Source of the DNA: Candidatus Omnitrophota bacterium
GTDB taxonomy: Bacteria > Omnitrophota > Gorgyraeia > Gygaellales > UBA12090
Assembly: GCA_030674475.1 (NCBI GenBank)
Contig: JAUSCZ010000023.1
Span: 87,819 to 151,818, forward strand
Reading direction: 5' to 3'
DNA: 64,000 nucleotides
Below the pieces are notes generated by a model. The model was not told the DNA's origin, did no database searches, and saw only the letters and a program-made list of their open reading frames with translations. Made by a program: the position numbers and the translations under genes. Shown one piece after another: positions 6,420 to 22,866 of the stretch (its first letter is position 1; each line of letters opens with the position of its first letter).

Positions 6420-6621
6420 AAATAAGTTTAGAAACGAATCCGGCCCCTATTCAAATCTTATAGATTCAAGAGATCTTACTAATCTCACCTCTCAAGAGCC
6501 CTGGGATAAGCTTACTTATTTCAGGGAATATCAAAAATCTTTTCAAGAGGGCGAATATAATCTTAAAGCCAACCAGCCTACAGCCTATGGCCAGACTATC
6601 CGCAGGTATATAAGCGGGGGA

Positions 6622-8064
6622 GTGGAATTGGGAAATAGCGGTTCTTCAGCTCTGATTATTCCAACGAAAAATAACAGAATTATAGATCATCCTGAGATAT
6701 TAAAGGTTAGTAGTGTTATACTGCCAGGCGACCTTAAGGCGTTCGGTAGGTCAACCAGTAGTTCGGCAGTAAAATATGTGCCAGAGCCTGAAGATTTGCG
6801 GATTAGTGATAATCCTGAAATTAGCGGTATCTGGAGTAAAATGGTTGAGGAGAATCTGAAGTTAGGTGAATTTGCCCGGAAATTAGCCGAGTTTTCCCGT
6901 CGTTACGGCGTTATCAATAAATTCCCTCCGGATATATTAAATGAATTGCGCAAGTTTAGCGAGCTTTATAACATTCCGGATAGTAAAAACAAAGCCGATA
7001 AGGACACCATAGCTTATAATTTAGGTTTTATTACTCTTAATAGCGGTATAAAAGAAGAAGATGATTCGCTGTTAGTCGCGCAATTTAAATTCAACCTCTT
7101 GTTTTTAGTGAGCATGGTTAATGCCGGAATAAAACCAGTTGAACTTTTTAATCAATTTAAAGAGATTGATAAGGATAATTTAAATAAAATAGCTACTGGA
7201 GGAAAACTCAAAGATGGTAACGCGTTTTATGATTATACCTGGAAACCGTTTAAGGATATAAGAAGTATCGCTTGGAGTAGTCTTGGCAAAAAGAAAGTTA
7301 ACGATTTCTTTAAAAAATTTGAGTTTTTATTGAACCTTTTTCAGAAAGAACGTATATCATATCATGAGATTGCGCGCCGCCGCCATGCCGGGGAGAAACC
7401 GTATATGGTGATTTTAAAGCAATACCGCGGACAATTTCCCTCGGACATTATTAATTTTCCGCGGGAATATATTGAGCAGCAAGAACCTATTACCAAATAT
7501 GCCCCTGAAGGAGGGAAAATAGGAGATACAGTAAAAAACCCCGGCGGCTTGCTTTTACCGGGTGAATCTGCGGGAAAGGTAAGAAAATTCACGCTTAACG
7601 GCCTGGAGTTTTACGCGAAACGGGTTAATTCTTTATGGACGCGATATCCTGAGGAAGAAATCATGATTTCACTGAAAGCCGCCCAAAGTTTAAAGAAAGT
7701 CAGCCCTTATTTTGGCGTGCAAGAGTTTATCGGTATCGTTTATGACCAGGGAGCCTTTTACTTATTGTCTCGGGCTATTGTCAGTGAGCAGCCTAGACCA
7801 CCGGAAACAATAAGAGATTTGAATCGATTTAAATTAGACGTAGTAGATAGTATGGTTCGCTTAGGGATGCCGAAGCATGATATCCAAAAGGAGGTTGTTA
7901 ATAAATTTGGAGAGATAACTTGGGTATTTTTAGATTTTGAAACGTTTCCTTATCGTCTTGTCAAAGACGCAGCCAAAGCCCTGGAAGCCCTTAAGAGCAG
8001 AAATAACAAAGAAAAGGCAAATGAGAATACCGTATTACTAATGATAGTGATTCAGACGAGTTAA
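6622..8064 (+). CDS. paralog 2 middle piece; reading frame actually continues from the frameshift site near 6377 (YSLILAQHFKNKF...) through to 8064
   Basis: Translating 6377-6621 in this frame restores the conserved N-module sequence (LIDSRDLTNLTSQEPWDKLTYFREYQKSFQEGEYNLK...GQTIRRYISGG) seen in paralogs 1 and 3. Confidence 0.5.
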   Translation: MELGNSGSSALIIPTKNNRIIDHPEILKVSSVILPGDLKAFGRSTSSSAVKYVPEPEDLRISDNPEISGIWSKMVEENLKLGEFARKLAEFSRRYGVINKFPPDILNELRKFSELYNIPDSKNKADKDTIAYNLGFITLNSGIKEEDDSLLVAQFKFNLLFLVSMVNAGIKPVELFNQFKEIDKDNLNKIATGGKLKDGNAFYDYTWKPFKDIRSIAWSSLGKKKVNDFFKKFEFLLNLFQKERISYHEIARRRHAGEKPYMVILKQYRGQFPSDIINFPREYIEQQEPITKYAPEGGKIGDTVKNPGGLLLPGESAGKVRKFTLNGLEFYAKRVNSLWTRYPEEEIMISLKAAQSLKKVSPYFGVQEFIGIVYDQGAFYLLSRAIVSEQPRPPETIRDLNRFKLDVVDSMVRLGMPKHDIQKEVVNKFGEITWVFLDFETFPYRLVKDAAKALEALKSRNNKEKANENTVLLMIVIQTS

Positions 8065-8279
8065 TCTTTAAAGTTAAACCTAAAGCGGAAATATTAAAAA
8101 AGGCAATTGGGTCGCTTCAGCAAAAAGCAAAAAAAATAGAAGAAGAAGGAAAAGCAATAGAAATAGAAAATGAAAAAGTAAATATTTTTGAAAAATATAC
8201 AGCATTCAAGGATGTAATAGATAAAAATATTTTAAACGATCCTGAATTAATAAAGAAAGAGATAAAAAAATTTGGAGAA

Positions 8280-9068
8280 TTGTTAGATAAGTTTGGCGCG
8301 AAGGTGAAAAACATAGTGAAAAATAACAATGAAGAAAAAGTGTCTTTTTCAGGAATAAGTATTTCTATATTTTACGATTTAGTAGATAAATTGAATAAGG
8401 CCAGGCACTACCCGTATTATATTGATTATGGAGCTAAAGTGAATAGTTTTATAAGGGTGATGGATGCGTATATAAAATTATTGTCAGATATTCAAAACCC
8501 GGGAAAAATTGAGGAAGGATGCGCAGAAAGGATGGATGAGTCAAGGAGTGAGCCGGAATTAACCTATTGGTTATTGAAAGAATATAATAAATTGCCTCAA
8601 GAAAAAGAATCTATGAATTCTTCCCCCGTCTTAGCAAGTGAAATCGGTAGAAATATTTTTGCGCCAATTAAGAAAAAAGGCGGTATTGACCTTACCGCCT
8701 TACCCATAACCACCCAATCCCACTTAAATCAGCCTTTGACGGATAATATACCTATAGCAGGCTCGGCCTTAAATCTCAATCGCGCCCTGAGCGATAGTCA
8801 AAGGGTTAATTTAGATAAGGAGCTTCGGGATATTCAGAATATGCTTAAGGCTGGGATTATGCCTTCAGGTGAAAGAATAAAGGAATATGCCTTAGCCTCT
8901 TCGTCTTTGGGGCCGGAAGACCACAACTGGGAAATTGACCGTCTGCTGGGCTGTATTGCTGATGTTTTTAGATTAGAAGAAGAAAAGGCCAAACCCACCC
9001 CGCAAATCTTAAAAGATGTGCTTATTCTGCTGGAATCGGATAACCCCGCCCCGTTACAAATTCTCTGA
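8280..9068 (+). CDS. paralog 2 C-terminal piece carrying the conserved family C module; separated from the middle piece by a second frame change around 8036-8064
   Basis: GGIDLTALPITTQSHLNQPLTDNIPIAG...LKAGIMPSGERIKEYALASSSL...LGCIADVFRLEEE is about 85% DNA-identical to the 3' end of paralog 1. The frame is open back to 8039. Confidence 0.55.
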   Translation: MLDKFGAKVKNIVKNNNEEKVSFSGISISIFYDLVDKLNKARHYPYYIDYGAKVNSFIRVMDAYIKLLSDIQNPGKIEEGCAERMDESRSEPELTYWLLKEYNKLPQEKESMNSSPVLASEIGRNIFAPIKKKGGIDLTALPITTQSHLNQPLTDNIPIAGSALNLNRALSDSQRVNLDKELRDIQNMLKAGIMPSGERIKEYALASSSLGPEDHNWEIDRLLGCIADVFRLEEEKAKPTPQILKDVLILLESDNPAPLQIL

Positions 9069-9226
9069 AACCGTATTTTATGCTATAAGTCTATTGTAAT
9101 TTATTACCGTATGTGAGGTCTCTGCGGCAAGAAACGGGAATTTGTAACGGGGCCCGCCCAGGAATTACAACTTGCCTTAGCCGGGAAACGGTAAATAATA
9201 TTTCTAATTAACCAACTAATTGCGGG

Positions 9227-9242
9227 TGTGAATTATTTCACA
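9227..9242 (+). promoter_or_regulatory. perfect CRP/FNR-family palindrome TGTGA-N6-TCACA upstream of the nuo promoter
   Basis: tgtgaattatttcaca read directly. Its centre lies 15.5 bp upstream of the -35 hexamer. Confidence 0.45.
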
Positions 9243-9249
9243 GAATCGT

Positions 9250-9278
9250 TTGACAGTAATAGGCTTTTGTGTTAAATT
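9250..9278 (+). promoter_or_regulatory. sigma70-like promoter for the nuo operon (TTGACA-N17-TAAATT)
   Basis: ttgaca at 9250-9255, 17-nt spacer, taaatt at 9273-9278, about 57 nt upstream of the nuoA ATG. Confidence 0.5.
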
Positions 9279-9334
9279 AAACTTTCTTCGCTGGCGGGTG
9301 GTTTTGAAAGGATTAAAACTCAATACAGAGTAAT

Positions 9335-9694
9335 ATGTTAGTTAATACTTATAGTTGTGTACTTTTGTTTTTAGCGGCTTCAACTGTGTTTGTCCTGGCC
9401 TCTTTTGTTACCTCCTGGGTTTTAAGGCCGCATAAGCCCAGCCCCCAGAAGCTCTCTACCTATGAATGCGGTGAACCGACTAAAGGGACCAGCTTTATCC
9501 AGTATAATGTTCGCTATTACTTGTTTGCCTTAGCCTTTGTTATTTTTGACGTGGAGGCGGTGTTTTTACTGCCTTGGGCCGTGGTCTGCAAAGACTTCGG
9601 CCTTTTCGGCTTTATTGAGGCAGTGGTTTTCATCTTTATCCTTTTGGCCGGCTTAGTTTATGCCTGGAAAAAGAAGGTGCTGGAATGGCTCTAA
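9335..9694 (+). CDS. nuoA: NADH-quinone oxidoreductase subunit A
   Basis: 119 aa, three TM helices. Typical NuoA/ND3 length and the YECGEP motif. First gene of a contiguous nuo cluster. Confidence 0.85.
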
Positions 9695-10191
9695 TCAATA
9701 AGCTTCCCATAATTACCGAGAAATTGCCCGGCGGCCAGATTATCCTGGCTTCGGTAGATTTTATCCTGAATTGGTCTAAGGAATCCAGCCTCTGGCCGAT
9801 GAGCTTTGGCCTGGCCTGTTGCGCCATTGAGATGATGGCTGCCGGCGCCGCCCGATATGATATGGACCGTTTTGGGGCCGGGGTTTTTCGGGCTTCTCCC
9901 CGGCAGTGCGACCTGATGATTGTTGCCGGCACCGTTAATGAGAAGATGTCCAAGCGGCTCAGGTTGTTATACGACCAGATGCCTGAACCCAAATATGTGA
10001 TGGCTATGGGCAGCTGCGCTATTTCCGGCGGGCCGTATTATTATGATAGTTATAATGTGGTTAAGGGCGTGGATTTAATTGTTCCGGTGGATGTGCATAT
10101 TCCGGGTTGCCCTCCCCGGCCAGAGGCTTTGCTTTTCGGCCTGATGCAGTTACAGAAAAAAATCAAGAAGGAAAGTATTAAAAATGGCTGA
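9685..10191 (+). CDS. nuoB: NADH-quinone oxidoreductase subunit B (N2 Fe-S cluster subunit)
   Basis: [15 protein letters not shown] and PGCPP cysteine motifs of NuoB/PSST. Confidence 0.9.
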
Positions 10192-10633
10192 TCCGGATTG
10201 GGTTTTGGCCCTGAAAAATAAATTTTCTGATACAGTTGAGGAAGTCTCTATCGGCTGTTTGGTCCTGCCCAAGGAAGATATTTTTAGGGCTATTAATTTC
10301 TTAAAGAGAGAATATGGCTTTGATTATCTGATGAATCTGGCGGCTTTGGATTATAAGGATAGATTGGCCGTGGTTTATAATCTGTATTCGTTTAGGCTTA
10401 AGGGTAAGCTTTGCCTGAAGGTATTCTTGCCTCGGGATAATCCCGCCCTAGAAAGCATAACCGGGATTTACGCGGCGGCTAATTGGCAGGAAAGGGAGGC
10501 CTTTGATTTGATGGGAATAAATTTTACCGGCCATCCGGATTTAAGAAGAATCCTCCTGCCGGATGATTATGCCGGATACCCTTTAAGAAAAGATTACACT
10601 AAAGAAGGCTTTCTTCCCATGCCCGCGGTTTAA
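10184..10633 (+). CDS. nuoC: NADH-quinone oxidoreductase subunit C
   Basis: 149 aa, NuoC/30-kDa subunit-like. Position between nuoB and nuoD; not fused to nuoD. Confidence 0.8.
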
Positions 10634-10634
10634 T

Positions 10635-11741
10635 ATGCCTACCTTAGAGACTCAGCAATTTAGCGTAAGTTTTGGCCCTCAGCACCCTTCCACCCACGGA
10701 GTTTTGCATCTGCAGATGGATTTGGACGGCGAGGTGATTGTCAATTGCACGCCCCATATTGGCTATCTCCACCGCGATTTTGAGAAAATCTGCGAAAATA
10801 GAACTTATACCCAGATTATCCCTTTTACCGACCGCCTGGATTATCTGGGGGCGATGAATAATAACTTTGGATACTGTTTGACGGTAGAGAAACTACTGGG
10901 AGTGGTTATTCCGGAGCGCGCCGAATATATCCGGGTGATTATTGCCGAGTTAAACCGGATTGCCAGCCACTTATTGGCCGTGGGCACCTTTGTCCAGGAC
11001 CTGGGGGCCTTTGGCACGCCTCTTTTATATTGCTTCCGGGAAAGGGAGATGATCCTGGATATCTTTGAGCTGACCTGCGGAGCCCGGCTTACCTATAATT
11101 ACTATCGTCTGGGTGGAGTTTCCGCGGATATCCCGGAGGGGTTTGTCCAAAAGGTCAAGGATTTTATCCGCTATTTCCGGCCAAAGTTAACTGACTATCA
11201 CCGTCTAATTACCAATAATGCCATTTTTCTTATCCGCACCAAAGACATTGGGGTTTTGAGTAAGGAAAAGGCGCTTAACTATGCTATTAGCGGCCCCAGC
11301 CTAAGGGCCAGCGGGATAAAGTTTGATTTAAGAAAGGAAGAGCCTTATTCTATTTATCCGCGTTTTGAATTTGACATTCCCACCAGAAATAGCGGCGACT
11401 GCTGGGATAGATATATTGTCAGGATGGAAGAGATGGAGCAGTCCCTGCGCATAGTGGAACAGGCCATAGATAAGATTCCCGAAGGGGATTTTAGCGCCAA
11501 ACTGCCCAAGATTATCAAGGTGCCTGCCGGTGAGTTGTATTTCCGGACTGAATCTCCCCGCGGGGAGCTGGGTTTCTATCTAATCAGCGATGGCTCGGCT
11601 AAGCCTTATCGCTTGAAATGTCGGGCGCCTTCATTTTCCAATTTAAGTGTTATCGCGGAATTAGTCAAAGGGGTAAAGATAGCCGATGTAATCGCTATCC
11701 TGGGAAGCCTGGATATTGTGTTGGGTGAGATAGACCGATGA
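10635..11741 (+). CDS. nuoD: NADH-quinone oxidoreductase subunit D (49-kDa subunit)
   Basis: 368 aa; NiFe-hydrogenase large-subunit-like fold motifs (HPSTHGVL..., RGELGFYL). Confidence 0.9.
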   Translation: MPTLETQQFSVSFGPQHPSTHGVLHLQMDLDGEVIVNCTPHIGYLHRDFEKICENRTYTQIIPFTDRLDYLGAMNNNFGYCLTVEKLLGVVIPERAEYIRVIIAELNRIASHLLAVGTFVQDLGAFGTPLLYCFREREMILDIFELTCGARLTYNYYRLGGVSADIPEGFVQKVKDFIRYFRPKLTDYHRLITNNAIFLIRTKDIGVLSKEKALNYAISGPSLRASGIKFDLRKEEPYSIYPRFEFDIPTRNSGDCWDRYIVRMEEMEQSLRIVEQAIDKIPEGDFSAKLPKIIKVPAGELYFRTESPRGELGFYLISDGSAKPYRLKCRAPSFSNLSVIAELVKGVKIADVIAILGSLDIVLGEIDR

Positions 11742-12727
11742 TGTTTAAAATATCCCCGGAAAATTGGGCTTTTTTAATTGAGTTTGCTTGGCTTTGCGCC
11801 AAGGCCGCCGGGCTTTTGGGCTTTGTCAGCCTTTCGGTTATGTTTTTAATCTGGTGGGAGAGAAAAGTCAGCGCCCATATCCAGTCGCGCCTGGGGCCGA
11901 TGCGGGTGGGTTGGCATGGCTGTCTGCAGACCATTGCCGACACCATCAAGCTTTTGCTTAAAGAAAATATCGTGGCCAAGGATACGGATAAGGTTTCTTT
12001 TTGGCTGGCTCCGCTGGTGTCTTTTGTGGCGGCTTTTCTGCCTTTCGCGGCTATACCTTTTGCTAAGAATTTGGTGGTTCAGGATTTTGGGTTAGGCTTG
12101 CTCTATATCTTCGCGGTGAGCAGTCTGGGAGTAATCGGGGTGTTTATGGCCGGTTGGGGCTCCGGGAATAAATATTCTTTGCTGGGGGCAATGCGGGCCT
12201 CGGCCCAGATTATCAGCTATGAGATTCCTCTGGTGCTTTCGGTCTTAAGTATTGTGATGCTCACCGGAAGCCTGAATATGACTAAGATTGTGGAGGCTCA
12301 AGGGCAGGTGTGGTTTGCCTTTAGCCAGCCGATAGCCTTTTTGATTTATTTCATTTCCGCCTTAGCTGAGACCAACCGGGCCCCTTTTGACATCTCTGAG
12401 GCTGAGTCTGAACTGGTGGCCGGATTTCACACCGAATACAGCGGGATGAAATTTTCCATGTTTTTCCTGGCTGAATATACCAATATGTTTGTTGTTTCCG
12501 CCATAGCCGCCACGCTTTTTTTGGGCGGCTGGCAGGGGCCGTTTTTACCGGGAATATTCTGGTTTCTGGCTAAGGTCTATTTTCTTATATTTTTAATGAT
12601 GTGGATACGTTGGACCTTTCCCCGTTTTAGGGTTGATCAGCTGATGAACTTTGCCTGGAAATTTTTAGTGCCGTTGGCTTTCCTGAATATCTTAGCCACC
12701 GCGTTATTCTTAGTACTAAAAAAATAA
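11738..12727 (+). CDS. nuoH: NADH-quinone oxidoreductase subunit H
   Basis: 329-aa polytopic membrane protein; NuoH/ND1 signatures (ERKVSAHIQSRLGP, EAESELVAGFHTEYSG). Confidence 0.9.
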   Translation: MMFKISPENWAFLIEFAWLCAKAAGLLGFVSLSVMFLIWWERKVSAHIQSRLGPMRVGWHGCLQTIADTIKLLLKENIVAKDTDKVSFWLAPLVSFVAAFLPFAAIPFAKNLVVQDFGLGLLYIFAVSSLGVIGVFMAGWGSGNKYSLLGAMRASAQIISYEIPLVLSVLSIVMLTGSLNMTKIVEAQGQVWFAFSQPIAFLIYFISALAETNRAPFDISEAESELVAGFHTEYSGMKFSMFFLAEYTNMFVVSAIAATLFLGGWQGPFLPGIFWFLAKVYFLIFLMMWIRWTFPRFRVDQLMNFAWKFLVPLAFLNILATALFLVLKK

Positions 12728-12729
12728 AA

Positions 12730-13149
12730 ATGATCAAGAGAATAAAAAGAATATTTTCTGATAGTTTCAGCCTGCTCCAGGGTTTAGCGGTTACCGCCAA
12801 GTATTTATTTAGCCCGGCAGTTACCCTGCAATATCCCACACAACGCTGGACGCCTCCGGAGCGTTACCGGGGGAGGGTGGCTTTGCGGCCGAAGAAATGT
12901 ATCTCTTGCCAGATGTGCGTCCGGGCCTGTCCGAATTATTCCTTAGAGGTGAAGTTTAGCCTGGGGGAAGATAAGAAGAGAAAATTGAGTGGCTTTATAT
13001 ATCATTTAGATACCTGCTTGTTCTGCGGCTTATGCGTTGAACCCTGCCCTACCGCGGCGATATTTATGAACCAGGAGTATGAGCTCGCGGTGTATGAGCG
13101 CAAGGAACTAGTGATGGACTTGACTGAGGCGGATAAAAATGTGGAGTAA
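12730..13149 (+). CDS. nuoI: NADH-quinone oxidoreductase subunit I (2x[4Fe-4S] ferredoxin-like)
   Basis: Two CxxCxxCxxxCP motifs (CISCQMCVRACP, CLFCGLCVEPCP). Confidence 0.9.
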   Translation: MIKRIKRIFSDSFSLLQGLAVTAKYLFSPAVTLQYPTQRWTPPERYRGRVALRPKKCISCQMCVRACPNYSLEVKFSLGEDKKRKLSGFIYHLDTCLFCGLCVEPCPTAAIFMNQEYELAVYERKELVMDLTEADKNVE

Positions 13150-13639
13150 TTTTCTTAGCGCGTCAATTTTTTATCTGATAGCTATAGTCGGCATTATTTT
13201 CGCCATACTCTCGGTTACCTTGAAGAATATGTTTCATAGCGCCCTGGCCTTAATCGTGATGCTTCTGGGTGTAGCGGTGGTCTATATCTATTTAGACGCG
13301 GAGTTTCTGGCCCTGGTCCAGATTTTGATTTATGTGGGGGCGATTATGACCCTGGTTATCTTTGCCATAATGCTTACCGCGGAAATCTATAATAAAAACA
13401 TTAAGCGCCACAACCAGCAGAAGCTGATTTCCCTTATCATTGCCTCCAGTATGGCCGGTTTCCTAATCTTTGTCTTGAGCCGCTTTAAGGCCCAGGCAGG
13501 AGTAAGTTTTTTTGAACCGCTGACTTTAGCCATGATTGGAAAAGAACTATTAACTAAGTATGTGTTGCCTTTTGAGCTGATTTCAATAATCCTGCTGGCG
13601 GCCCTGGTGGGCTCGGCGGCTATAAGCAAGAAAGAATGA
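13139..13639 (+). CDS. nuoJ: NADH-quinone oxidoreductase subunit J
   Basis: 166-aa membrane protein, ND6-like; position in the operon. Confidence 0.8.
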   Translation: MWSNFLSASIFYLIAIVGIIFAILSVTLKNMFHSALALIVMLLGVAVVYIYLDAEFLALVQILIYVGAIMTLVIFAIMLTAEIYNKNIKRHNQQKLISLIIASSMAGFLIFVLSRFKAQAGVSFFEPLTLAMIGKELLTKYVLPFELISIILLAALVGSAAISKKE

Positions 13640-13944
13640 TACCTTTAAGCCATTATCTGATTTTATCGGCCATATTATTTTCTATCGGCCTTTACGGGGT
13701 CTTTACCCGTCGTAGCGCGATAGGGATTTTATTGTCTTTGGAGATTATGCTCAATGCCGTAAATATCAATTTTGTGGCCTTTGCTAAATTTATGGCTCCG
13801 CAAGCCCTCGCCGGGCAGATTTTTGTCATCTTTACTATTGGCGTAGCCGCGGCTTCCACCGTGGTGGGCCTGGCTATAATCGTGGCTATCTACCATAATT
13901 ATAAGACTATTTTTGTGGATGAGATAGATGTGATGAAATGGTAA
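13636..13944 (+). CDS. nuoK: NADH-quinone oxidoreductase subunit K
   Basis: 102 aa, three TM helices, ND4L-like; position in the operon. Confidence 0.85.
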   Translation: MIPLSHYLILSAILFSIGLYGVFTRRSAIGILLSLEIMLNAVNINFVAFAKFMAPQALAGQIFVIFTIGVAAASTVVGLAIIVAIYHNYKTIFVDEIDVMKW

Positions 13945-15857
13945 ACTACGCGTATCTAATTCCTCTGTTTCCTTTGCTGGCTTTCGCGGTTAATATCTTC
14001 TGGGGCCGCAGGCTAAAGGCTAAAAGCGCGCCGGTGGCTATTCTGGCTATGCTGGGCTCTTTGGTTATTTCCTGCCTAATCCTTAAAGAAGTTATTACCG
14101 GGAAAACCCTGGAGCAGAGCGTAGAGTGGTTTAAAGTTGGCCGGTATTCTTTTGAGGCCGGCTTTTTGGTTGACCCCTTGAGCGCGATGATGTTGTGTGT
14201 GGTTACCCTGGTGGGGCTTTTGGTTGAGGTATATTCCATCGGCTATATGCGCGGGGATAAGCGCTATCATCTTTTCTTTGCCTATGTATCCTTATTTATC
14301 TTTTCAATGTTGGGCCTGGTTTTATCCAACAATCTTATCCAGACGTATGTATTTTGGGAGTTGGTGGGGGTGTGTTCGTATCTGTTGATTAGCTTCTGGT
14401 TTGAGAAGAAATCCGCCGCCGACGCCGGGAAAAAGGCCTTTATCACTAACCGGATAGGAGATGCCGGATTTTTCTTAGGCTTGTCTACCCTGTTTTATTA
14501 TTTAGGCACGGCTAACTTTACTCAAATCAGCCAAAGATTAATGCATCATCCTGAGGGCTTAAGCCAGGGTATTTTGGCCCTGGCGGCAGTGCTGATTTTC
14601 TGCGGGGCAGTGGGTAAATCGGCCCAGTTTCCCCTGCATGTCTGGCTGCCGGACGCGATGGAGGGCCCTACCCCGGTAAGCGCTTTGATTCACGCCGCCA
14701 CCATGGTTGCCGCCGGAGTGTATCTGGTTGCCCGAAGCTACGCGGTCTTTGCCGCGGGGCATCTTTCCTTAGAAGTAGTTTCTTATATCGGAATCATCAC
14801 TTCGTTTATGGCCGGCTCAATCGCCCTGGTGCAGACCGATATCAAGCGCATCCTGGCTTATTCCACGGTCAGCCAATTAGGCTATATGATGATAGCTTTG
14901 GGGGTGGGTGGTTATAGCGCCGGGGTGTTTCATTTGATGACCCACGCCTTTTTTAAGGCCCTGCTTTTCCTGTGCGCCGGAAGCGTAATTCATGCTTGCG
15001 GGGTTCAGGATATCCGCCAGATGGGCGGTTTATTCGGGAAGATGAAGGTAACCGCGACTACCTGCCTGATTGGCTGTCTGGCTATTTCCGGGGTTCCGCC
15101 CTTAAGCGGCTTCTGGAGCAAGGATGAGATTTTATTATCGGTGTATAACAGCGGAAACCGGGTGCTTTACGGCCTGACTTTAATTGTGGCTTTTATGACC
15201 GCCTTTTATATGTTCCGGCTTTTGTTTTTGACATTTTTCGGAAAACCCAGGGAGAAACTGCATATCCATAAACCGGCCCCAACCATGGATTGGCCGTTGA
15301 TTATTTTAGCGGTATTCAGTATATTTTCCGGATTTGTCGGCTCACCTTTGATGGGCCATGCCTTTTCCCGTTTTATCTATTTTCATCCTGAGCATACTGA
15401 ACCGAATTATATGGTGATGATTTCTTCTGTTATCGTAGGTTTGGCCGGCATATCTTTGGCTTGGGTATTTTATATTTTATCTCCGGCACTACCCGCGGCC
15501 CTGGCTAAAAATTTCCAGCCGGTTTATAATCTTTTGCTGAATAAATACTGGATTGATGAGATTTACGACAGGTTTATCATTCAGCCGTTTTTACGCCTGA
15601 CCAAGTTTGCTTTCTCCTTTGACCGCTATCTGATTGACGGGGCAGTGAATCTTACCGGAACATCCTGCGTGGCGGTCAGCCGGGTTAAGGGCTGGATTGA
15701 TAAATATATCGTTGACGGTCTGGTTAACCTGATTGCCCTGGTGGTGGGGGCATTGGGTGAGGTTTTCCGCCGCTTACAGACCGGACTTATTCAAAACTAT
15801 ATCCTGTTGATTTTTACCGGGGTGGTGGTAATTGTTTTCTTGTTGAGATTTATTTAA
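13938..15857 (+). CDS. nuoL: NADH-quinone oxidoreductase subunit L (antiporter-like)
   Basis: 639 aa; Mrp/ND5 antiporter-like motifs (WLPDAMEGPTPVSALIHAATMV). Confidence 0.9.
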   Translation: MVNYAYLIPLFPLLAFAVNIFWGRRLKAKSAPVAILAMLGSLVISCLILKEVITGKTLEQSVEWFKVGRYSFEAGFLVDPLSAMMLCVVTLVGLLVEVYSIGYMRGDKRYHLFFAYVSLFIFSMLGLVLSNNLIQTYVFWELVGVCSYLLISFWFEKKSAADAGKKAFITNRIGDAGFFLGLSTLFYYLGTANFTQISQRLMHHPEGLSQGILALAAVLIFCGAVGKSAQFPLHVWLPDAMEGPTPVSALIHAATMVAAGVYLVARSYAVFAAGHLSLEVVSYIGIITSFMAGSIALVQTDIKRILAYSTVSQLGYMMIALGVGGYSAGVFHLMTHAFFKALLFLCAGSVIHACGVQDIRQMGGLFGKMKVTATTCLIGCLAISGVPPLSGFWSKDEILLSVYNSGNRVLYGLTLIVAFMTAFYMFRLLFLTFFGKPREKLHIHKPAPTMDWPLIILAVFSIFSGFVGSPLMGHAFSRFIYFHPEHTEPNYMVMISSVIVGLAGISLAWVFYILSPALPAALAKNFQPVYNLLLNKYWIDEIYDRFIIQPFLRLTKFAFSFDRYLIDGAVNLTGTSCVAVSRVKGWIDKYIVDGLVNLIALVVGALGEVFRRLQTGLIQNYILLIFTGVVVIVFLLRFI

Positions 15858-15929
15858 ATGAAAGTTTTCCCTTGCGTAAACGCTCGTAAATTTCTGCGAA
15901 ATTTACTTCGCACGCTACGGGATTAATTC

Positions 15930-15982
15930 GCGCATAAACTTATGCCTTCCTGCCTACCGGCAGGCAGGCATAAGTTTAGCGC
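15930..15982 (+). repeat. long imperfect palindrome / stem-loop in the nuoL-nuoM intergenic gap; its core TATGCC-TYCCTGCC-TACCGGCAGG resembles the palindrome inside the heptamer-array element at 59918-60024
   Basis: gcgcataaacttatgcc...ggcataagtttagcgc arms of about 15 bp with a central CCTACCGGCAGG, read directly. Confidence 0.5.
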
Positions 15983-16001
15983 TCATTAAGGAGGCTTAGC
16001 A

Positions 16002-17483
16002 ATGTTAGGTTTTCCACTTTTAAGTTCAGCTGTATTCTTGCCGATTTTGGGGATTTTGATTTTGTTTTTTATCCCTAAAAATAAAACCGCTCTAATCCGG
16101 GTAACCAGCGGCATAATTACTTTTCTTACCCTGATTGTTTCGCTGGTAATCTTTACTCACTTTAATAGCAATGACCCCGGCCTGCAATTGCAGGAACGCT
16201 TGAGCTGGATACCCCAGGTGAATATCAATTATCATTTGGGAGTTGACGGATTAAGCTATTCTATGGTTTTCCTGACCGCGCTTTTGTGTTTTCTGGCCTG
16301 CATTGCCTCTAATTCCATCAAGGAGAGAATTAAGGAGTATTATATCTTCTTTCTGCTCTTAGAAACCGGGATGATGGGGACATTCCTGGCTTTGGATCTG
16401 TTTTTGTTTTATGTCTTCTGGGAGATAACCCTGGTTCCGATGTATTTCTTAATCGGTATCTGGGGCGGGCCGAGAAAGGAATACGCGGCCATAAAGTTTT
16501 TCCTGTATACCTTAGCCGGCAGTGTCTTTATGCTCCTGGGTATTTTAGCTTTGTATTTTACCAGCACTCCCCATACCTTTAATATTTTAGAGTTGACCCA
16601 GCAGTCTAAGTTTTTCGCCCAGGCTTTTCAGAACATTGTCTTTTTGGCCTTGTTTTTCGGCTTCGCGGTTAAGGTGCCGGTGTTTCCTTTTCATACCTGG
16701 CTGCCGGATGCCCATGTGGAGGCCCCGACTCCGATAAGCGTGCTTTTGGCCGGGGTTTTGCTGAAGATGGGCGCGTATGGTTTTTTCAGGATAAGCTATC
16801 CTATATTACCCCAGGCCGCCAATTATTTCGGTTTCGCCATCGCGGTGCTGGCGGTAATCAATATCGTGTATGGGGCTTTTGTAGCCATGGCCCAGACGGA
16901 TTTCAAGAAGATGGTGGCCTATTCCAGCGTCAGCCATATGGGCTTTGTAATGCTGGGCCTGGCGGCCTTAAGCCCGGTGGGCTTTAGCGGCGCGGCAATG
17001 CAGATGTTTAACCACGGGATCATCACCGGGGCTATGTTTTTATTGGTGGGAGTTCTTTATGACCGCTCGCATACCCGGGAGATGGGCGCTTTTGGAGGCC
17101 TACGGGTAAACTTGCCGGTTTTCTCGGCAGTGTTGATTTTCTTTTCCATGGCTTCTTTGGGGCTTCCCGGTTTAAGCGGTTTTATCGGTGAGTTTTTATC
17201 TTTGCTGGGCGGCTTTAAGGCTTTTAAGCTGCTCACCGCCATCTCGGTCCTGGGCATTGTGATTACTGCCGGGTATATCCTGGTGATGATTCAAAAGGTT
17301 CTCTTGGGGCCGATGAATGACAAATGGAAGGGCCTGAGCGAAATTAGCTTTCGGGAATTGGTAACCGTGGTGCCTTTGTTAGTTATTGTCTTGGTTTTAG
17401 GGGTTTATCCCAAGCTGGCCCTGGATATTATCAATCCCGCTTTAAATCTTATTCTGAATAATATGGGAGTGGTTTTACCTTGA
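16002..17483 (+). CDS. nuoM: NADH-quinone oxidoreductase subunit M (antiporter-like)
   Basis: 493 aa, ND4-like (WLPDAHVEAPTPISVLLAGVLLKMG). Confidence 0.9.
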   Translation: MLGFPLLSSAVFLPILGILILFFIPKNKTALIRVTSGIITFLTLIVSLVIFTHFNSNDPGLQLQERLSWIPQVNINYHLGVDGLSYSMVFLTALLCFLACIASNSIKERIKEYYIFFLLLETGMMGTFLALDLFLFYVFWEITLVPMYFLIGIWGGPRKEYAAIKFFLYTLAGSVFMLLGILALYFTSTPHTFNILELTQQSKFFAQAFQNIVFLALFFGFAVKVPVFPFHTWLPDAHVEAPTPISVLLAGVLLKMGAYGFFRISYPILPQAANYFGFAIAVLAVINIVYGAFVAMAQTDFKKMVAYSSVSHMGFVMLGLAALSPVGFSGAAMQMFNHGIITGAMFLLVGVLYDRSHTREMGAFGGLRVNLPVFSAVLIFFSMASLGLPGLSGFIGEFLSLLGGFKAFKLLTAISVLGIVITAGYILVMIQKVLLGPMNDKWKGLSEISFRELVTVVPLLVIVLVLGVYPKLALDIINPALNLILNNMGVVLP

Positions 17484-18919
17484 TGAATTTATTGCTTGAT
17501 TTAAAATTTATCCAGCCGGAGATTATCTTAATTATTGCCTCTATCCTGGTATTGATGCTGGATTTTATATTCAAATCCAAGCGCCTGTTGGCCTATTTTT
17601 CCCTGTTTTCTTTATTTTCGGCTTTGCTGGTTTTGGGCCGGGGAACTCTATCGGCTCACAGCCTGTTTTCCGGGATGTTGGTCAGCGACCCCCTGGCTTT
17701 GTTTTTACGGATACTCTCGGTTTTTATTACGGCAATGGTAATTTTGCTCTCCATTGATTATCAGGAGATAGGCCCGGGAATGAGGTCAGAGCTTTATTCC
17801 CTCTTATTGATGGCGGCTTCGGCAATGATGTTTCTTTCCGCTGCCAACAATCTCTTGATGATTTATTTGGGGATTGAATTCATCAGCCTGATTTCTTATG
17901 TCCTGGCCGCCTACTGGAAAGGGAATCTTAAATCCAGCGAGGCCGGACTTAAATATTTTCTTTTTGGTACCGCCTGCTCCATCACTATGCTTTATGGTAT
18001 GTCAATTATCTACGGCATAACCGGCACCCTGGACTTACCGCAGATGAACCAGGCCTTGTTCAATAATCAATTTAGCCCTATAGTCATTTACATTGCTATC
18101 TTGATGGTCTCGGTGGGCCTGGCCTTTAAAGTGGCGATGGTGCCCTTTCATTTCTGGTGCCCGGATGTCTACGAGGGGGCTCCTACGCCGGTAACCGCCT
18201 TTTTCTCCGTGGGCCCTAAGCTGTTGGGATTCGCGGTGTTATTAAGATTTTTGCTCGGAGGCAGTGCTTTATTCTATCAGCATTGGATGCATCTTTTGGG
18301 GATTCTGGCCATCGCCACTATGGTGGTAGGAAATCTGACCGCCCTGGCCCAGACTAATATTAAGAGATTGCTGGCCTATTCTTCAATTGCCCACGCCGGC
18401 TATGCCTTAATTGGCTTAGTGGTCAATACCACTGCCGGATACATTAGCCTGTTTATTTATTTATCAACCTACATCGTGATGAATTTGGGGGCCTTTGCCG
18501 TGGTAATCGCGGTCTCGAACCAGACCAAAAGCGATGAGATCAAGGATTACGCCGGTTTATCGGTCCATTCCCCTTATTTAGCCGCCCTGTTTAGTCTGTT
18601 TCTGATTTCTTTAGCCGGCATCCCGCCCCTGGCCGGCTTTATCGGCAAGTTTTATATCTTTAGCTCGGCCATTAAAGAAGGTTTTCTCTACTTAGCGATT
18701 GCCGCGGTCCTCAACAGCGTCATTGCCGCCTACTACTATTTTAATATCATCCGCGTAATGTATTTAGTTCCCCCTTGCGCCTCAGCCGTAAAAATCAAGC
18801 CCTCCCCAGCCTTAAATCTGGCCCTAGTCTTAAGCTTACTCCTGGTTTTAGCTATGGGCTTGTATCCCAAACCGGTTATAGACTGGGTCAGTGCCGCCCT
18901 AGTCTTTCCCTCGCCCTAA
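17480..18919 (+). CDS. nuoN: NADH-quinone oxidoreductase subunit N (antiporter-like)
   Basis: 479 aa, ND2-like (FHFWCPDVYEGAPTPVTAFF). Confidence 0.9.
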   Translation: MMNLLLDLKFIQPEIILIIASILVLMLDFIFKSKRLLAYFSLFSLFSALLVLGRGTLSAHSLFSGMLVSDPLALFLRILSVFITAMVILLSIDYQEIGPGMRSELYSLLLMAASAMMFLSAANNLLMIYLGIEFISLISYVLAAYWKGNLKSSEAGLKYFLFGTACSITMLYGMSIIYGITGTLDLPQMNQALFNNQFSPIVIYIAILMVSVGLAFKVAMVPFHFWCPDVYEGAPTPVTAFFSVGPKLLGFAVLLRFLLGGSALFYQHWMHLLGILAIATMVVGNLTALAQTNIKRLLAYSSIAHAGYALIGLVVNTTAGYISLFIYLSTYIVMNLGAFAVVIAVSNQTKSDEIKDYAGLSVHSPYLAALFSLFLISLAGIPPLAGFIGKFYIFSSAIKEGFLYLAIAAVLNSVIAAYYYFNIIRVMYLVPPCASAVKIKPSPALNLALVLSLLLVLAMGLYPKPVIDWVSAALVFPSP

Positions 18920-18965
18920 AATTCATCTCAATCCGTTTATCACGTTTAACTATTTTCTCTCTATT

Positions 18966-19050
18966 TCCTCTCCCCTTGCGGGAGAGGTAAGAAATCCTCC
19001 CCTTACCAAGGGGAGGCGAGGAGGGGTTAGGTGAGGGGAAAAATTGCGAG
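18966..19050 (+). terminator. tandem GC-rich hairpins downstream of nuoN (cctctcccc/gggagagg, cctcccctt-acc-aaggggagg, ggggaaa-...-tttcccc)
   Basis: Three perfect 7-9 bp stems read directly after the operon's last stop codon. Confidence 0.5.
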
Positions 19051-19435
19051 TTTCCCCTGATAATTGACTGGCTACCCTAATTGTGATATTTTTATCGACA
19101 ATGGCAATGGCTGTGATAAACTGGGTGTATAAATTGGCCAAAGTAGCTTTGTTACGAGAGTGGAACTATTAGCGGGGTATTGGGATAGATTGGTAAGGCA
19201 ATGGAAGCGAATGATAAAGTTTTGGATTCGTCAGTCATTTGATAGCATCGAACAAGTTGAAAATAGATACGCGAATTTAACCGTGCCTGTTGAAGTGGCT
19301 TTGCAGTAGTTTCCACGAATCAACTTGTTGATAAGGGTACCAATGAAACTATGGAGAGAAACGAGGGATTAAAATCACTCACATTCAGGCGGTGTCATCA
19401 ATAGGGCATTGTGGCCACTGGGGAGCAAGGATATA

Positions 19436-19465
19436 ACACCTTGGCCTATCGGAAGGCCAAGGTGT
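19436..19465 (+). promoter_or_regulatory. perfect 11-bp-arm inverted repeat (acaccttggcc-tatcggaa-ggccaaggtgt) immediately upstream of the hsdM ribosome-binding site
   Basis: Read directly; followed by AAGGAG at 19476-19481 and GTG at 19489. Confidence 0.4.
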
Positions 19466-19488
19466 TCGCTTGTGCAAGGAGATCTCGA

Positions 19489-21495
19489 GTGACAATCAAT
19501 TTTAAAGAAAGCGCAAATTTTATCTGGGGTATTGCCGATCTTTTGCGCGGTGACTATAAACAGTCCGAATATGGTCGTATAATACTGCCTCTCACGGTTT
19601 TACGGCGTTTGGACTGTGTGCTTGAGCCGACCAAGGAAGCGGTTTTGTCATATCTTCCGCAGACCAAAGGCTTATCTCCGGAAGCCGCTGAGACGGTGCT
19701 TAAGAAAAAAGCGAAGTTGTCATTTTGTAATAAGAGCAAATTTGATTTCCAAAAACTGGTTGCCGACCCGAACGATATCGCCGTTAATCTTCGCAATTAC
19801 ATCAATGGTTTCTCCAAAAATGCCCGCAATATTCTGGAGCATTTCAACTTTGATGACCACATCGAGCGGCTCGATAAATCAAACCTCTTATATATGATCG
19901 TCAAGCGTTTTGCCGAAGTTGATTTGCATCCGAACAAGATCCAAAACATCGAGATGGGCTATATATTTGAAGAGCTTATCCGCAAATTCGCTGACTTATC
20001 AAACGAGACTGCCGGAGAACACTTTACGCCTCGTGAAGTTATTCGGCTTATGGTTAATATTCTCTTTCTAAACGACAAGGATGTCCTTACAAAGAAAGGA
20101 ATCGTTAAAACCTTATATGACCCGGCCTGTGGAACCGGCGGCATGCTTTCTGTGGCAGAAGAATATCTTCGCGAGCTTAACCCCGATGCGGATTTACGCG
20201 TATTCGGTCAAGAGTTAAATCCCGAGTCTTACGCTATTTGCAATTCCGATATGCTCATCAAGGGGCAGAATACCGATCACATCAAGTTTGGCAACTCTTT
20301 TACGCAAGACGGCCTTAAGGATGAAAAGTTTGATTATATGCTTAGCAATCCGCCTTTTGGCGTGGAGTGGAAAAAGATAGAAGAAGAGATTACTAAAGAA
20401 TACGAGCAGTTAGGTTTCTCCGGCCGTTTTGGCGCGGGGTTTCCGCGGATTAGCGACGGGTCTTTTCTGTTTCTACAGCATATGATTTCAAAGATGAAGC
20501 CGGAGAATGGCGGCGCGCGGCTGGGGATAGTCTTTAATGGTTCGCCTCTTTTTTCAGGCGGAGCCGGAAGCGGTGAAAGCGAAATCCGCAAATGGATCAT
20601 TGAAAATGATATGCTTGAGGCCATTATCGCGATGCCGGATCAGCTTTTCTATAACACCGGTATTTCAACTTATATCTGGATTGTTACCAACCGTAAGCTC
20701 AAGGATCGTAAAGGAAGAATTCAACTTATCAACGCGGTCGGATTCTTCAAGAAGATGTCCCGGAGCCTCGGCAACAAACGTAATGAGATCAGCGATGAAC
20801 ATATCGCGGAGGTCACAAAGATTTATGGCGCGTTTAAAAATGGGGAATTCAGCAAGATCTTTCCTAATGAGTATTTTGGGTATACCCGTGTAACGGTCGA
20901 GCGGCCATTGCGGTTGAATTTTCAAACTTCCAATGAGAGGATCTCCCGGCTGGATCAGCAAACAGGATTCGTTAATCTTGCCAAGTCTAAGAAAAAAGGC
21001 AGGGAAGGTATCAAAGAGGTTGAGGAAGGCGAAAAATCACAGAAAGCAATCAAAGCTATGCTTGCGGGAATAGACGGAACTCATTTCTATAAGAACCGGG
21101 AGAAGTTTGTAAGGGTTATGGAAGCGGCTATAGATAAGGCTGAATTAAAGATTAAAGCGCCGGTAATAAAAGCTATTCTTGGGGCCCTTTCGGAGAGGGA
21201 TGAGACAGCGGATGTGTGCAAGGACAGGGATGGTAAGCCGGAACCCGACAGCGAATTACGCGACTGTGAGAATGTGCCGCTCGCAGACAACATTGAAACC
21301 TATTTTAAGCGTGAAGTTCTACCTCACGTGCCGGACGCGTGGATGGACAGAGGCAGGGACAAGGTTGGATATGAGATCAACTTTACGAAGGAATTCTACA
21401 AATACAAACCATTGAGAAGCATCAAGGAGATACAAAAAGACATTTTAGAATTAGAGCAACAAACAGAAGGTTTATTAAAGGAGATTTTGCAATGA
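19489..21495 (+). CDS. hsdM: type I restriction-modification N6-adenine DNA methyltransferase subunit M (ORF is open from 19411; the GTG at 19489 has a perfect AAGGAG box 7 nt upstream)
   Basis: HsdM N-terminal domain (NFKESANFIWGIADLLRGDYKQSEYGRIILPLTVLRRLDCVL), motif I DPACGTGGML, motif IV NPPFG. Confidence 0.9.
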   Translation: MTINFKESANFIWGIADLLRGDYKQSEYGRIILPLTVLRRLDCVLEPTKEAVLSYLPQTKGLSPEAAETVLKKKAKLSFCNKSKFDFQKLVADPNDIAVNLRNYINGFSKNARNILEHFNFDDHIERLDKSNLLYMIVKRFAEVDLHPNKIQNIEMGYIFEELIRKFADLSNETAGEHFTPREVIRLMVNILFLNDKDVLTKKGIVKTLYDPACGTGGMLSVAEEYLRELNPDADLRVFGQELNPESYAICNSDMLIKGQNTDHIKFGNSFTQDGLKDEKFDYMLSNPPFGVEWKKIEEEITKEYEQLGFSGRFGAGFPRISDGSFLFLQHMISKMKPENGGARLGIVFNGSPLFSGGAGSGESEIRKWIIENDMLEAIIAMPDQLFYNTGISTYIWIVTNRKLKDRKGRIQLINAVGFFKKMSRSLGNKRNEISDEHIAEVTKIYGAFKNGEFSKIFPNEYFGYTRVTVERPLRLNFQTSNERISRLDQQTGFVNLAKSKKKGREGIKEVEEGEKSQKAIKAMLAGIDGTHFYKNREKFVRVMEAAIDKAELKIKAPVIKAILGALSERDETADVCKDRDGKPEPDSELRDCENVPLADNIETYFKREVLPHVPDAWMDRGRDKVGYEINFTKEFYKYKPLRSIKEIQKDILELEQQTEGLLKEILQ

Positions 21496-22583
21496 AAAAA
21501 CCATATGCTCCGCAATCATTGCCGCTTGATTCATTAGATTGGGTTAGATTTGTTTCGCTTATAGGACCGGCCAATGCCGAATTGGCGCGCTATGACGGAA
21601 TTCTGCAAGGGATTCTTAACCCTAGAGTACTGCTTTCCCCGCTAACAACCAATGAGGCAGTTCTTTCTTCAAAAATTGAAGGAACGCAGGCTTCGTTACA
21701 GGAAGTTTTGGAGTTTGAGGCATCCCCTGATTTAAGAACAGAGAAGCGAGAAGATATTCTGGAGATTCTCAATTATCGTAAGGCGATGCAGTTGTCCGTA
21801 GATTGGCTTAAGTCCAAGCCCATTACGCTTAATATGATCAAGGATGTTCATAACACGCTTTTAGACAGCGTGAGAGGTAAGGATAAAGCCCGCGGGCAAT
21901 TTCGCAGGTTACAAAATTGGATTGGGAAACCCGGGACGCCCATGGAAGAAGCTATGTATATTCCTCCAGACCCTATGTTTCTCATGGATCATTTATCCAA
22001 TTTTGAGAAATATATCCATTTTGATGAAAAAGACCGGCTTGTTCAGTTAGCCATCGTTCACGCGCAGTTTGAAATTATTCATCCTTTTTTAGATGGGAAT
22101 GGACGTTTGGGGCGTATTCTGATACCACTCTTTCTTTATGAGAAGAAAGCATTAGGGTCGCCGATGTTTTATATCAGTGAATATCTGGAATCCCATCGCG
22201 ATGAATATTACGCCAGGTTGAACGCGATAACCTCCGATGGGCAATGGAACGACTGGATTGAGTTTTTCTTAAAAGCCGTGCTTGAACAGGCAAAGAATAA
22301 TAGCGCAAAGGCAAAGGCTATCTTAGATCTTTACAATGCCAAAAAAGATAAGATTATGGCCGTAACTCATTCGCAATATACAGTTAAAATTTTGGATACT
22401 TTATTCAAGACGCCGATTTTTAATATGACTGATTTTATAAAAATTTCAGGTATTCCCAAAGCAAGCGCAACCCGAATTCTGAATATTCTTAAAAAAGAAG
22501 AAATGCTGGCGGTTTTACATCAAGGGAGAGGGAGATCTCCCGGGGTTATGGCTTTTACCAAATTATTAAAGATTTGTGGCTAA
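21492..22583 (+). CDS. Fic/Doc family protein (AMPylase-type, with C-terminal winged-helix) inserted between hsdM and hsdS
   Basis: Canonical Fic motif HPFLDGNGRLGR; overlaps the hsdM stop by 4 nt. Confidence 0.85.
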   Translation: MKKPYAPQSLPLDSLDWVRFVSLIGPANAELARYDGILQGILNPRVLLSPLTTNEAVLSSKIEGTQASLQEVLEFEASPDLRTEKREDILEILNYRKAMQLSVDWLKSKPITLNMIKDVHNTLLDSVRGKDKARGQFRRLQNWIGKPGTPMEEAMYIPPDPMFLMDHLSNFEKYIHFDEKDRLVQLAIVHAQFEIIHPFLDGNGRLGRILIPLFLYEKKALGSPMFYISEYLESHRDEYYARLNAITSDGQWNDWIEFFLKAVLEQAKNNSAKAKAILDLYNAKKDKIMAVTHSQYTVKILDTLFKTPIFNMTDFIKISGIPKASATRILNILKKEEMLAVLHQGRGRSPGVMAFTKLLKICG

Positions 22584-22735
22584 TAAAATTGCCTTTATCG
22601 TACATAACAATTCTTGTGTATATTCTATTGCGCGCAAATTACTTTGTGTCTCGTAATATCATATAAATGAGACACAAATTGGTTTATGAATAATGCGTGA
22701 AACACGAGCCATTTATAGCATAACTCATTATTTAA

Positions 22736-22861: not shown

Positions 22862-22866
22862 ATAGT

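Follow-up and report, generated by a model that had tools for sequence, protein, structure and literature searches.

Where does a complex I obtain its electrons when the module that oxidizes NADH is missing from its operon? The question is raised by a locus of Candidatus Omnitrophota bacterium, a 64 kb stretch of contig JAUSCZ010000023.1 that was analysed as a whole (the window), in which eleven nuo genes follow one another without nuoE, nuoF and nuoG. Complex I of 11 subunits lacking the NADH dehydrogenase module (N-module) is widespread in bacteria and is regarded as the ancestral form of the enzyme (PMC3144371, PMC11238625). Among the candidate donors ferredoxin is favoured, and a role as a platform for several partners has been proposed as well (PMC3144371, PMC11238625). 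In Omnitrophota, complex I was earlier scored by PF00346 alone, the Pfam family of NuoD, and NADH was drawn as the donor (PMC10066038). We find that the NADH reading does not hold in this Omnitrophota lineage, where the N-module is missing and the operon is linked to a 2-oxoacid:ferredoxin oxidoreductase (OFOR) and to ATP synthase. The enzyme type as such is already known in many anaerobes, and the locus is a further instance of it, not a new system.

The forward-strand open reading frames (ORFs) of at least 100 aa in the window were scanned with Pfam and NCBIfam models. Eleven colinear genes in the order nuoA-B-C-D-H-I-J-K-L-M-N were identified at positions 9335–18919:

9335–9694, forward strand: nuoA, 119 aa (NF005839, E = 3e-38)
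9685–10191, forward strand: nuoB, 168 aa (NF005012, 246 bits, cut-off 116)
10184–10633, forward strand: nuoC, 149 aa (TIGR01961, 127 bits, cut-off 122)
10635–11741, forward strand: nuoD, 368 aa, short form (NF008974 equivalog, 561 bits, cut-off 522)
11738–12727, forward strand: nuoH, 329 aa (NF004741, 388 bits, cut-off 305)
12730–13149, forward strand: nuoI, 139 aa (TIGR01971, 117 bits, cut-off 113)
13139–13639, forward strand: nuoJ, 166 aa (NCBIfam/Pfam)
13636–13944, forward strand: nuoK, 102 aa (NF004320, 111 bits, cut-off 57)
13938–15857, forward strand: nuoL, 639 aa (NF005141, 711 bits, cut-off 556)
15858–16001, forward strand: nuoL–nuoM spacer with a strain-specific folded insertion of ~110 nt
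16002–17483, forward strand: nuoM, 493 aa (TIGR01972, 610 bits, cut-off 264)
17480–18919, forward strand: nuoN, 479 aa, TTG start (TIGR01770, 422 bits, cut-off 333)

The eleven genes form one translationally coupled operon, in which neighbours overlap by 4–11 nt or are 1–2 nt apart, with the exception of nuoL and nuoM (144 nt). Since nuoD and nuoH overlap by 4 nt, the usual place of nuoEFG is closed and there is no room between the two genes. None of the NuoE, NuoF and NuoG Pfam families was found among the scanned ORFs. We also used tblastn with the Pfam-verified NuoE, NuoF and NuoG that lie between nuoD and nuoH in a 14-subunit Ktedonobacter operon (L060; other loci are likewise given by L numbers), and the search, run on six-frame translations of the window and of the loci of 11 relatives (10 of Omnitrophota lineage and one of Planctomycetia, L001), gave nothing better than E = 0.018. 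According to a preprint (10.64898/2026.06.07.730766), nuoG occurs in none of 176 complete Omnitrophota genomes, the KEGG orthology (KO) entries of nuoE and nuoF occur in 24–43 of the 176, and the other nuo subunits in ~11 genomes of the phylum. That the locus is an N-module-less 11-subunit complex I operon, as the initial annotation had claimed from a run of nuoA–D straight into nuoH–N, is in our view close to certain: the gene order, the 4 nt overlap and the null tblastn result agree, all subunits were identified, and NuoD belongs to a clade of nuoEFG-less operons (see below).

The residues on which electron transfer and proton pumping depend are in place. NuoB has the ligands of cluster N2 (the tandem-cysteine N2 motif and PGCPP), and NuoI has two CxxCxxCxxxCP motifs with a Lys/Arg-rich loop (EDKKRKL) in between; the residues of clusters N6a and N6b are intact as well. 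The quinone-site His (HPSTHG) and Tyr (RLDY) are kept in NuoD, and the channel Glu and Lys residues in NuoL, NuoM and NuoN, of which NuoL carries a long C-terminal extension. NiFe-binding cysteine motifs were looked for in the NuoD sequence and none was present; hydrogenase models scored E = 3e-4 or weaker on the window proteins. With its cofactor, quinone-site and channel motifs intact and no NiFe cysteines, the complex has the appearance of a functional quinone reductase that pumps protons, not of a hydrogenase, and NuoI is its predicted electron entry point. An exact look-up of the NuoD sequence of the window matched no record.

The nuoL–nuoM spacer contains an insertion of ~110 nt that is absent from the sister strain L002. 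It folds very strongly (minimum free energy −58.6 kcal/mol, z = −6.5) and includes a long near-perfect hairpin around CCTGCCTACCGGCAGG. Between two biotin-pathway genes, at 59937–59956, there is a GC-rich hairpin that is related to it. The insertion may be a small REP/MITE-like element or an intra-operon signal for RNA processing or stability. No Rfam model reached its gathering threshold anywhere in the window, and none gave a credible match at E ≤ 1 within positions 8900–19500; no tRNA genes were found in the window.

The likeness of this enzyme to cyanobacterial NDH-1 and archaeal Fpo, which the initial annotation had drawn, extends to the 11-subunit architecture without an N-module and stops short of family membership. 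The NCBIfam NdhH model scored 430 on NuoD (cut-off 583), and NdhI and NdhF scored 99 (cut-off 302) and 634 (cut-off 963); the values for FpoD, FpoH and FpoL were 391 (cut-off 600), 318 (cut-off 475) and 503 (cut-off 1050). No window ORF had a Pfam match to the accessory subunits NdhL–Q, S and V, and none of NdhS/V/O or FpoF/FpoO was found in the window. Because the scores stay below the NdhH and FpoD cut-offs, the enzyme is, as far as family models tell, outside both the NDH-1 and the Fpo families. Nevertheless, among solved structures the best-scoring proteins were cyanobacterial NdhH (404 bits, versus 369 for Thermus) and NdhI (95 versus 78 bits). The cyanobacterial and plastid complexes (PDB 6HUM, 6KHI) share with the window the 11-subunit core and a Lys-rich loop between the two cluster motifs of NuoI/NdhI; they differ in having the NdhL–V accessories, among them the ferredoxin-docking NdhS/V/O, in genes that are dispersed and not gathered in one operon, and in a 25-residue insert in NdhH that the NuoD of the window does not have. 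Archaeal Fpo/Fqo has the same core, and the short FpoD aligns end to end with NuoD with no insert; the window enzyme differs by scores far under the Fpo cut-offs, the absence of FpoF/FpoO, the bacterial host and a predicted quinone, not methanophenazine, as acceptor. An Fpo that works without FpoF and uses ferredoxin exists in Methanothrix. Compared with the 14-subunit enzymes (Thermus Nqo1–14, E. coli NuoA–N), the Q- and P-modules are homologous and the coupling residues the same, whereas NuoE/F/G with the FMN and NADH site are missing, NuoD is short and NuoI has 139 aa. With the bacterial 11-subunit enzymes (PMC11238625) the window agrees in the identity and order of the 11 genes of its single operon, in lacking nuoEFG, in its intact Q- and P-module motifs, in an anaerobe-type host and in ferredoxin as the proposed donor. 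The window differs from these in its host, an Omnitrophota bacterium with a genome of ~1.5–1.8 Mb, in relatives whose operon is fused to atp and abuts OFOR genes, and in the promoter and Rex-like operator that the window lineage has of its own.

To place the operon among its relatives, NuoD was compared in an alignment of 82 sequences including that of the window. The closest sequences, 95–98% identical, come from the groundwater Omnitrophota bins GWA2_41_15 (L002) and UBA12090 (L003); the former is assigned to genus UBA10183 of class Gorgyraia (GTDB Koll11), and its genome size is estimated at 1.5–1.8 Mb (Seymour et al., PMC10066038). A 25-residue insert in NuoD (PPPKxE…SMEALIHHFKLxTEG) was present in every operon with a nuoD–nuoH gap of 4–7 kb, the size of nuoEFG, and was missing from the window NuoD and from nearly all operons in which nuoD abuts nuoH. 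In a neighbour-joining (NJ) tree calculated after removal of the insert columns, all insert-bearing NuoD still fell in one clade, and the window NuoD grouped with the Omnitrophota and Planctomycetia operons in which nuoD abuts nuoH, beside Ignavibacteria and Bdellovibrionota. The tree was built by NJ only, without bootstrap values and without NdhH or FpoD as outgroups. The shared absence of the 25 residues and the NJ grouping argue that the 11-gene architecture is native to the short-NuoD clade and not the product of a recent deletion, which is the answer to the phylogenetic check that the initial annotation had proposed. The indel was also considered as a docking surface for the N-module. This was rejected: NdhH, which likewise works without an N-module, carries the insert, and the indel is therefore only a clade marker.

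Some loci have unusual layouts. In five Chloroflexia (Chlorohelix) loci (L024, L039, L050, L053 and L068) nuoD abuts nuoH and nuoEFG is absent. The NuoD of these loci nonetheless has a version of the insert, LPPKELAMSQAEAMQRHFYQVIHG, and falls with the 14-subunit clade; these operons may have lost or relocated nuoEFG independently and secondarily. Another 11 loci from metagenome-assembled genomes (MAGs) of Bdellovibrionota and 'Deltaproteobacteria' (L006, L008, L010, L013, L014, L017–L020, L023, L037) have only nuoB-C-D-I, the Q-module, with no nuoA, H or J–N detectable nearby, and a short-type NuoD that branches as the sister of the Ignavibacteria 11-subunit clade. The same nuoB-C-D-I layout was seen in an Anaerolineales MAG (L025), with a KorAB-like OFOR ~6 kb downstream but a NuoD that stands elsewhere in the tree, together with those of L032 and L046. 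Directly before nuoA in L081 (7504–8603) and L082 (7498–8600), both at 80% NuoD identity, lie genes for a DUF5981 protein (similar to the MTHFR C-terminus) and a DUF116 protein; this pair, which the window does not have, may act as an accessory or as a redox partner.

The second element of the proposed electron path is the OFOR, whose two genes begin ~23.5–23.6 kb after the nuoN stop codon. The initial annotation had assigned a 2-oxoacid:ferredoxin oxidoreductase to 42528–45184, and both subunits matched their models:

42492/42528–44252, forward strand: OFOR alpha, a gamma-alpha fusion (korA; TIGR03710, 674 bits; 42528 is the ATG of the initial annotation)
44330–45184, forward strand: OFOR beta, TPP-binding (korB; TIGR02177, 352 bits)

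A connection between korAB and complex I had been proposed from their presence in the same window, and it gains support from the gene order in relatives. In L085 (NuoD 84% identical) the order is atpD-atpC-(8 nt)-nuoA..N-(89 nt)-korA-korB-malQ, and the orthologous KorA, KorB and MalQ are 73, 81 and 70% identical to those of the window. In L087 (NuoD 82%) it is atpC-nuoA..N-yjeF_N-korA-korB. The genes atpIBEFHAGDC end 3 nt before nuoA in L088, where a gene for an H+-pyrophosphatase precedes the atp operon, and atpI follows nuoN in L082 (18220–18672). The window has korAB-malQ in the same orientation as L085 and a yjeF_N gene at 62364–63017. On the simplest reading of these arrangements, an ancestral (atp)-nuo-korAB-malQ cluster would have been split in the window lineage by insertion of accessory DNA. 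The order atp-nuo also suggests an atp-nuo super-operon in related Omnitrophota, at 31–10298 in L085, 992–10961 in L087 and 1–14022 in L088, with gaps of 3–27 nt between atp and nuoA. This atp-nuo-korAB synteny is additional genomic evidence on the donor of bacterial 11-subunit complex I, and the association in two relatives suggests that the OFOR supplies it.

The stretch between nuoN and korA contains a type I restriction-modification (R-M) system, an ABC-F protein, DUF2157 and GDYXXLXY proteins, small ORFs, a YhcG nuclease and acs, and its GC content falls to 0.375–0.41, compared with 0.44–0.48 in nuo and kor. The R-M genes (19411–31150) encode HsdM, HsdS and an HsdR with a C-terminal S24-peptidase-like domain, and are interleaved with genes for Fic, a KAP P-loop NTPase, and an IrrE-like M78 peptidase with DUF4411. 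At the same place downstream of nuoN, L002 has an AbiEi/AbiEii-WYL module (18354–20620). The DNA directly after nuoN is a variable defence hotspot. The acs gene (39943–41904; TIGR02188, 982 bits) encodes an AMP-forming acetate-CoA ligase and lies just upstream of korAB. Between acs and korA there is a 56-aa ORF (42248–42418) with a glycine-rich N-terminus and two CxxC pairs (CDDCKKEC…YCKDCF), which is followed by a strong terminator hairpin. A weak RnfD/NqrB-like ORF at 47369–48112 was examined as another electron input and rejected, as it had no NCBIfam match and does not belong to an Rnf cluster.

The region upstream of nuoA was analysed for signals of its expression. It holds the palindrome and the promoter that the initial annotation had reported:

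9226–9243, no strand assigned: 18-bp operator GTGTGAATTATTTCACAG, with arms TGTGAA and TTCACA around TTAT and a g at either end; a perfect TGTGA-N6-TCACA of the Rex-operator type
9250–9278, forward strand: sigma-70-type promoter TTGACA-17-TAAATT with extended −10 TG, 10/12 matches, 57 nt before the nuoA ATG

The core palindrome TGTGAATTATTTCACA (9227–9242) occurs once in the window and in none of 100 shuffled sequences. Its expected number is 0.07 per window, or ~2 per 1.8 Mb genome, so that the lone occurrence is only mildly unusual and conservation is the stronger argument. Upstream of nuoA the window, L002 and L003 have 63% column identity with large indels; amid this divergence GGTGTGAATTATTTCACA, the −35 TTGACA and the extended −10 TGTGnTAAAT are invariant. 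The block that is 92% identical to L002 starts at 9225, two bases ahead of the palindrome, and reaches 14 nt beyond the nuoN stop; its flanks are 74% identical or unrelated. Sites with TGTGA-N6-TCACA (at most 1 mismatch) within 300 nt upstream of nuoA were found in 6 of 57 loci of other lineages versus 0.6–0.85% in controls, an enrichment of ~15-fold (P ~1e-5 to 1e-6). These six loci belong to Zixibacteria, Anaerolineae, other Chloroflexota, Gemmatimonadota and one unclassified bacterial MAG (L046). We take both palindrome and promoter to be genuine, conserved signals and not random ones, given their invariance between diverged strains and, for the palindrome, the enrichment of similar sites before nuoA elsewhere. 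Such sites lie upstream of both 11- and 14-subunit operons, and the operator is not specific to the former. The site overlaps the −10 in L052, a repressor-type position, and ends ~30 nt upstream of the nuoA ATG in L021, where the promoter was not identified.

In the nuoA leader of the same Zixibacteria locus, L021 (8570–8620), three pairs of TGTGA-type half-sites lie within 45 nt, TTGTGAAAATTAATTTGTGACAGTCACATTGTGACATAAATCACAA, which suggests multiple or cooperative operator sites.

We propose the following path for the complex, which would consist of a Q-module of NuoB, C, D and I and a P-module of NuoA, H, J, K, L, M and N. Since NuoE/F/G are absent, NADH would not be oxidized directly. Ferredoxin, reduced by the two-subunit OFOR among other routes, would instead deliver electrons to the exposed distal [4Fe-4S] cluster of NuoI, from where they would pass through the second NuoI cluster to N2 of NuoB and on to a quinone at the NuoD/NuoB/NuoH site; the type of quinone and the direction of flow are, like the donor, what we infer from the genes. 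Quinone reduction would drive proton pumping through NuoH/A/J/K and the three antiporter-like subunits, and the proton gradient would feed the F-type ATP synthase, which relatives encode in an operon fused to nuoA. Transcription would start at the extended −10 sigma-70-type promoter under a presumed dimeric regulator that binds the 18-bp inverted repeat and senses the redox state. We consider this model as a whole, with ferredoxin as the donor, reasonably probable. With the N-module missing and the operon linked to OFOR and ATP synthase, the inferred energy metabolism of ultra-small Omnitrophota shifts from NADH respiration to ferredoxin-driven respiration or to reverse electron flow.

Several observations weigh against the forward, ferredoxin-fed model. 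The initial annotation had taken it as established that 11-subunit enzymes use ferredoxin or another donor in place of NADH; for those of non-photosynthetic bacteria, ferredoxin use is a hypothesis and not a fact (PMC11238625). For the Omnitrophota enzyme ferredoxin appears to be the most likely donor. A scan of the window for ferredoxin genes by the motif CxxCxxCxxxC[PA] matched NuoI only. The korAB genes of the window are 23.6 kb distant and have their own upstream terminator, those of L085 have a promoter-like sequence of their own, and of the ~7 relatives whose DNA downstream of nuoN could be read, 2 have korAB adjoining it. A metagenome scan with KorA yielded only two close relatives, L089 with the acs-korAB order of the window and L090, which ends 200 nt upstream of korA, and ~78 homologues at ~50% identity with no nuo nearby. 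As the scan gave no new nuoN–korA junction, the synteny rests on L085 and L087. The same genes could also serve the opposite direction, a proton gradient from ATP hydrolysis or the H+-pyrophosphatase driving electrons from quinol to ferredoxin, with the OFOR carboxylating acetyl-CoA to pyruvate and acetate being assimilated. The position of acs just upstream of korAB, in the window as in L089, would suit such a route, as would the H+-pyrophosphatase and atp operon directly upstream of nuo in L088, and complex I can in principle run both ways. For the D. hafniense enzyme, a reverse mode has already been suggested (PMC11238625). However, the window shows no quinol source, forward operation accounts for the synteny just as well, and sequence alone does not tell the direction; we regard reverse operation as unlikely. 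Slightly lower still is the probability that we give to NADH or another soluble donor acting through a module encoded elsewhere, such as a NuoEF/HydBC/HoxEFU-like diaphorase, a hydrogenase or a formate dehydrogenase on NuoI. An unlinked NuoEF-like diaphorase is possible in view of the NuoE/F-like KOs in 24–43 of the 176 genomes, which also counts against ferredoxin; an enzyme linked to NADH could sensibly be controlled through an NADH-sensing operator of the Rex type, and the literature contains the proposal that the complex serves several partners as a docking platform. Yet nuoG, the bridge from NuoEF to NuoI, is absent from all 176 genomes, no such module was found in the 64 kb window or in the loci of relatives, and NuoD belongs to a clade of natively nuoEFG-less operons. 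A simpler explanation of the NuoE/F-like KOs is that they represent subunits of bifurcating [FeFe] hydrogenases, a type of enzyme reported in the phylum (PMC10066038). A further variant of the ferredoxin-linked model is that ATP synthase, 11-subunit complex and OFOR form a dedicated energy module in which the OFOR, having no ferredoxin-like delta subunit, docks on NuoI as a substitute N-module. We hold this to be improbable; if true, it would amount to a 2-oxoacid:quinone oxidoreductase supercomplex without free ferredoxin, and Rex would tie its expression to NADH/NAD+ although the enzyme never touches NADH.

Which protein binds the operator has to be weighed in a similar way. Rex is a repressor that senses NADH/NAD+ and that binds and represses the nuoA1–N1, atp and cyd promoters in Streptomyces (PMC2883068, PMC5355995); the operator consensus, TTGTGAAW4TTCACAA, was taken from S. 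aureus (PMC2883068; Rex operators also in PMC5355995). The window site agrees with it at 16 of 18 positions and has an all-A/T spacer, and that of L002 agrees at 17 of 18. The 18-mer with at most 3 mismatches was found 3 times in the whole window versus 3.79 expected, with no enrichment and no second member of a regulon, and the 16/18 match thus only describes the type of site. The initial annotation had suggested redox- or cAMP-type control by a CRP/FNR-type regulator. The FNR consensus TTGAT-N4-ATCAA does not match the site. The core TGTGA-N6-TCACA equals that of the CRP consensus, and a CRP/FNR-family activator could sit at this site, centred ~50 bp upstream of the start point. The inner flanks of an E. 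coli CRP site are T...A. In the window they are A...T (TGTGAA…TTCACA), as in Rex operators. Of the 10 listed sites, among them those of the window, L002 and L003 and the weaker ones of L033/L036, 8 have T as the final base of the spacer, which is Rex-like and not CRP-like. Neither the window nor the nuo loci yielded a cNMP-binding or CRP-family regulator. In the two Omnitrophota genomes whose KO lists could be read, the Rex KO K01926 is present in both, and the KOs of CRP (K10914) and FNR (K01420) in neither. The L052 site, over the −10, suggests repression.

Other findings tell against Rex as a repressor of this operon. The operator of the window lies just upstream of the −35 and not over the core promoter, a position that is compatible with a repressor and with an activator alike. 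It is confined to the window, L002, L003 and L086, a group whose NuoD identity is at least 95%, and absent from relatives at 80–85%, in which nuo is fused to atp (L085, L087, L088) or preceded by other genes (L081, L082, L084). A tblastn search of the window and 168 loci with approximate Bacillus/Thermus Rex queries and with E. coli CRP found neither near nuo. On balance we favour Rex as the regulator of the candidate operator, with somewhat better than even confidence; a CRP-family protein is a tentative second choice, and the small remainder falls to some other regulator. The site resembles the known Rex operators of S. avermitilis (nuoA1, atpI, cydA1; PMC5355995) and S. aureus (PMC2883068) in being an 18-bp repeat in a nuo promoter region, and differs from them in lying just upstream of the −35 without overlap and in belonging to an enzyme that has no NADH site. 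Rex-like operators before nuoA in several phyla would be a modest extension of the Rex regulon.

Beside the operon the window encodes members of a family of large signal-peptide proteins (1477–5478, 5517–9068 and 52588–56247), of which L002 has one at 4060–8409. The members have two domains in common, one of ~380 aa at the N-terminus (71% identity) and one of ~125 aa at the C-terminus (GGIDLxxLPIxTQ…, 45–58%), and their centres are wholly different, one being a B12-binding radical SAM enzyme and the others without a Pfam match. In the window, the copy just upstream of nuoA is broken up into three ORFs, compared with an intact ORF of 1449 aa in L002.

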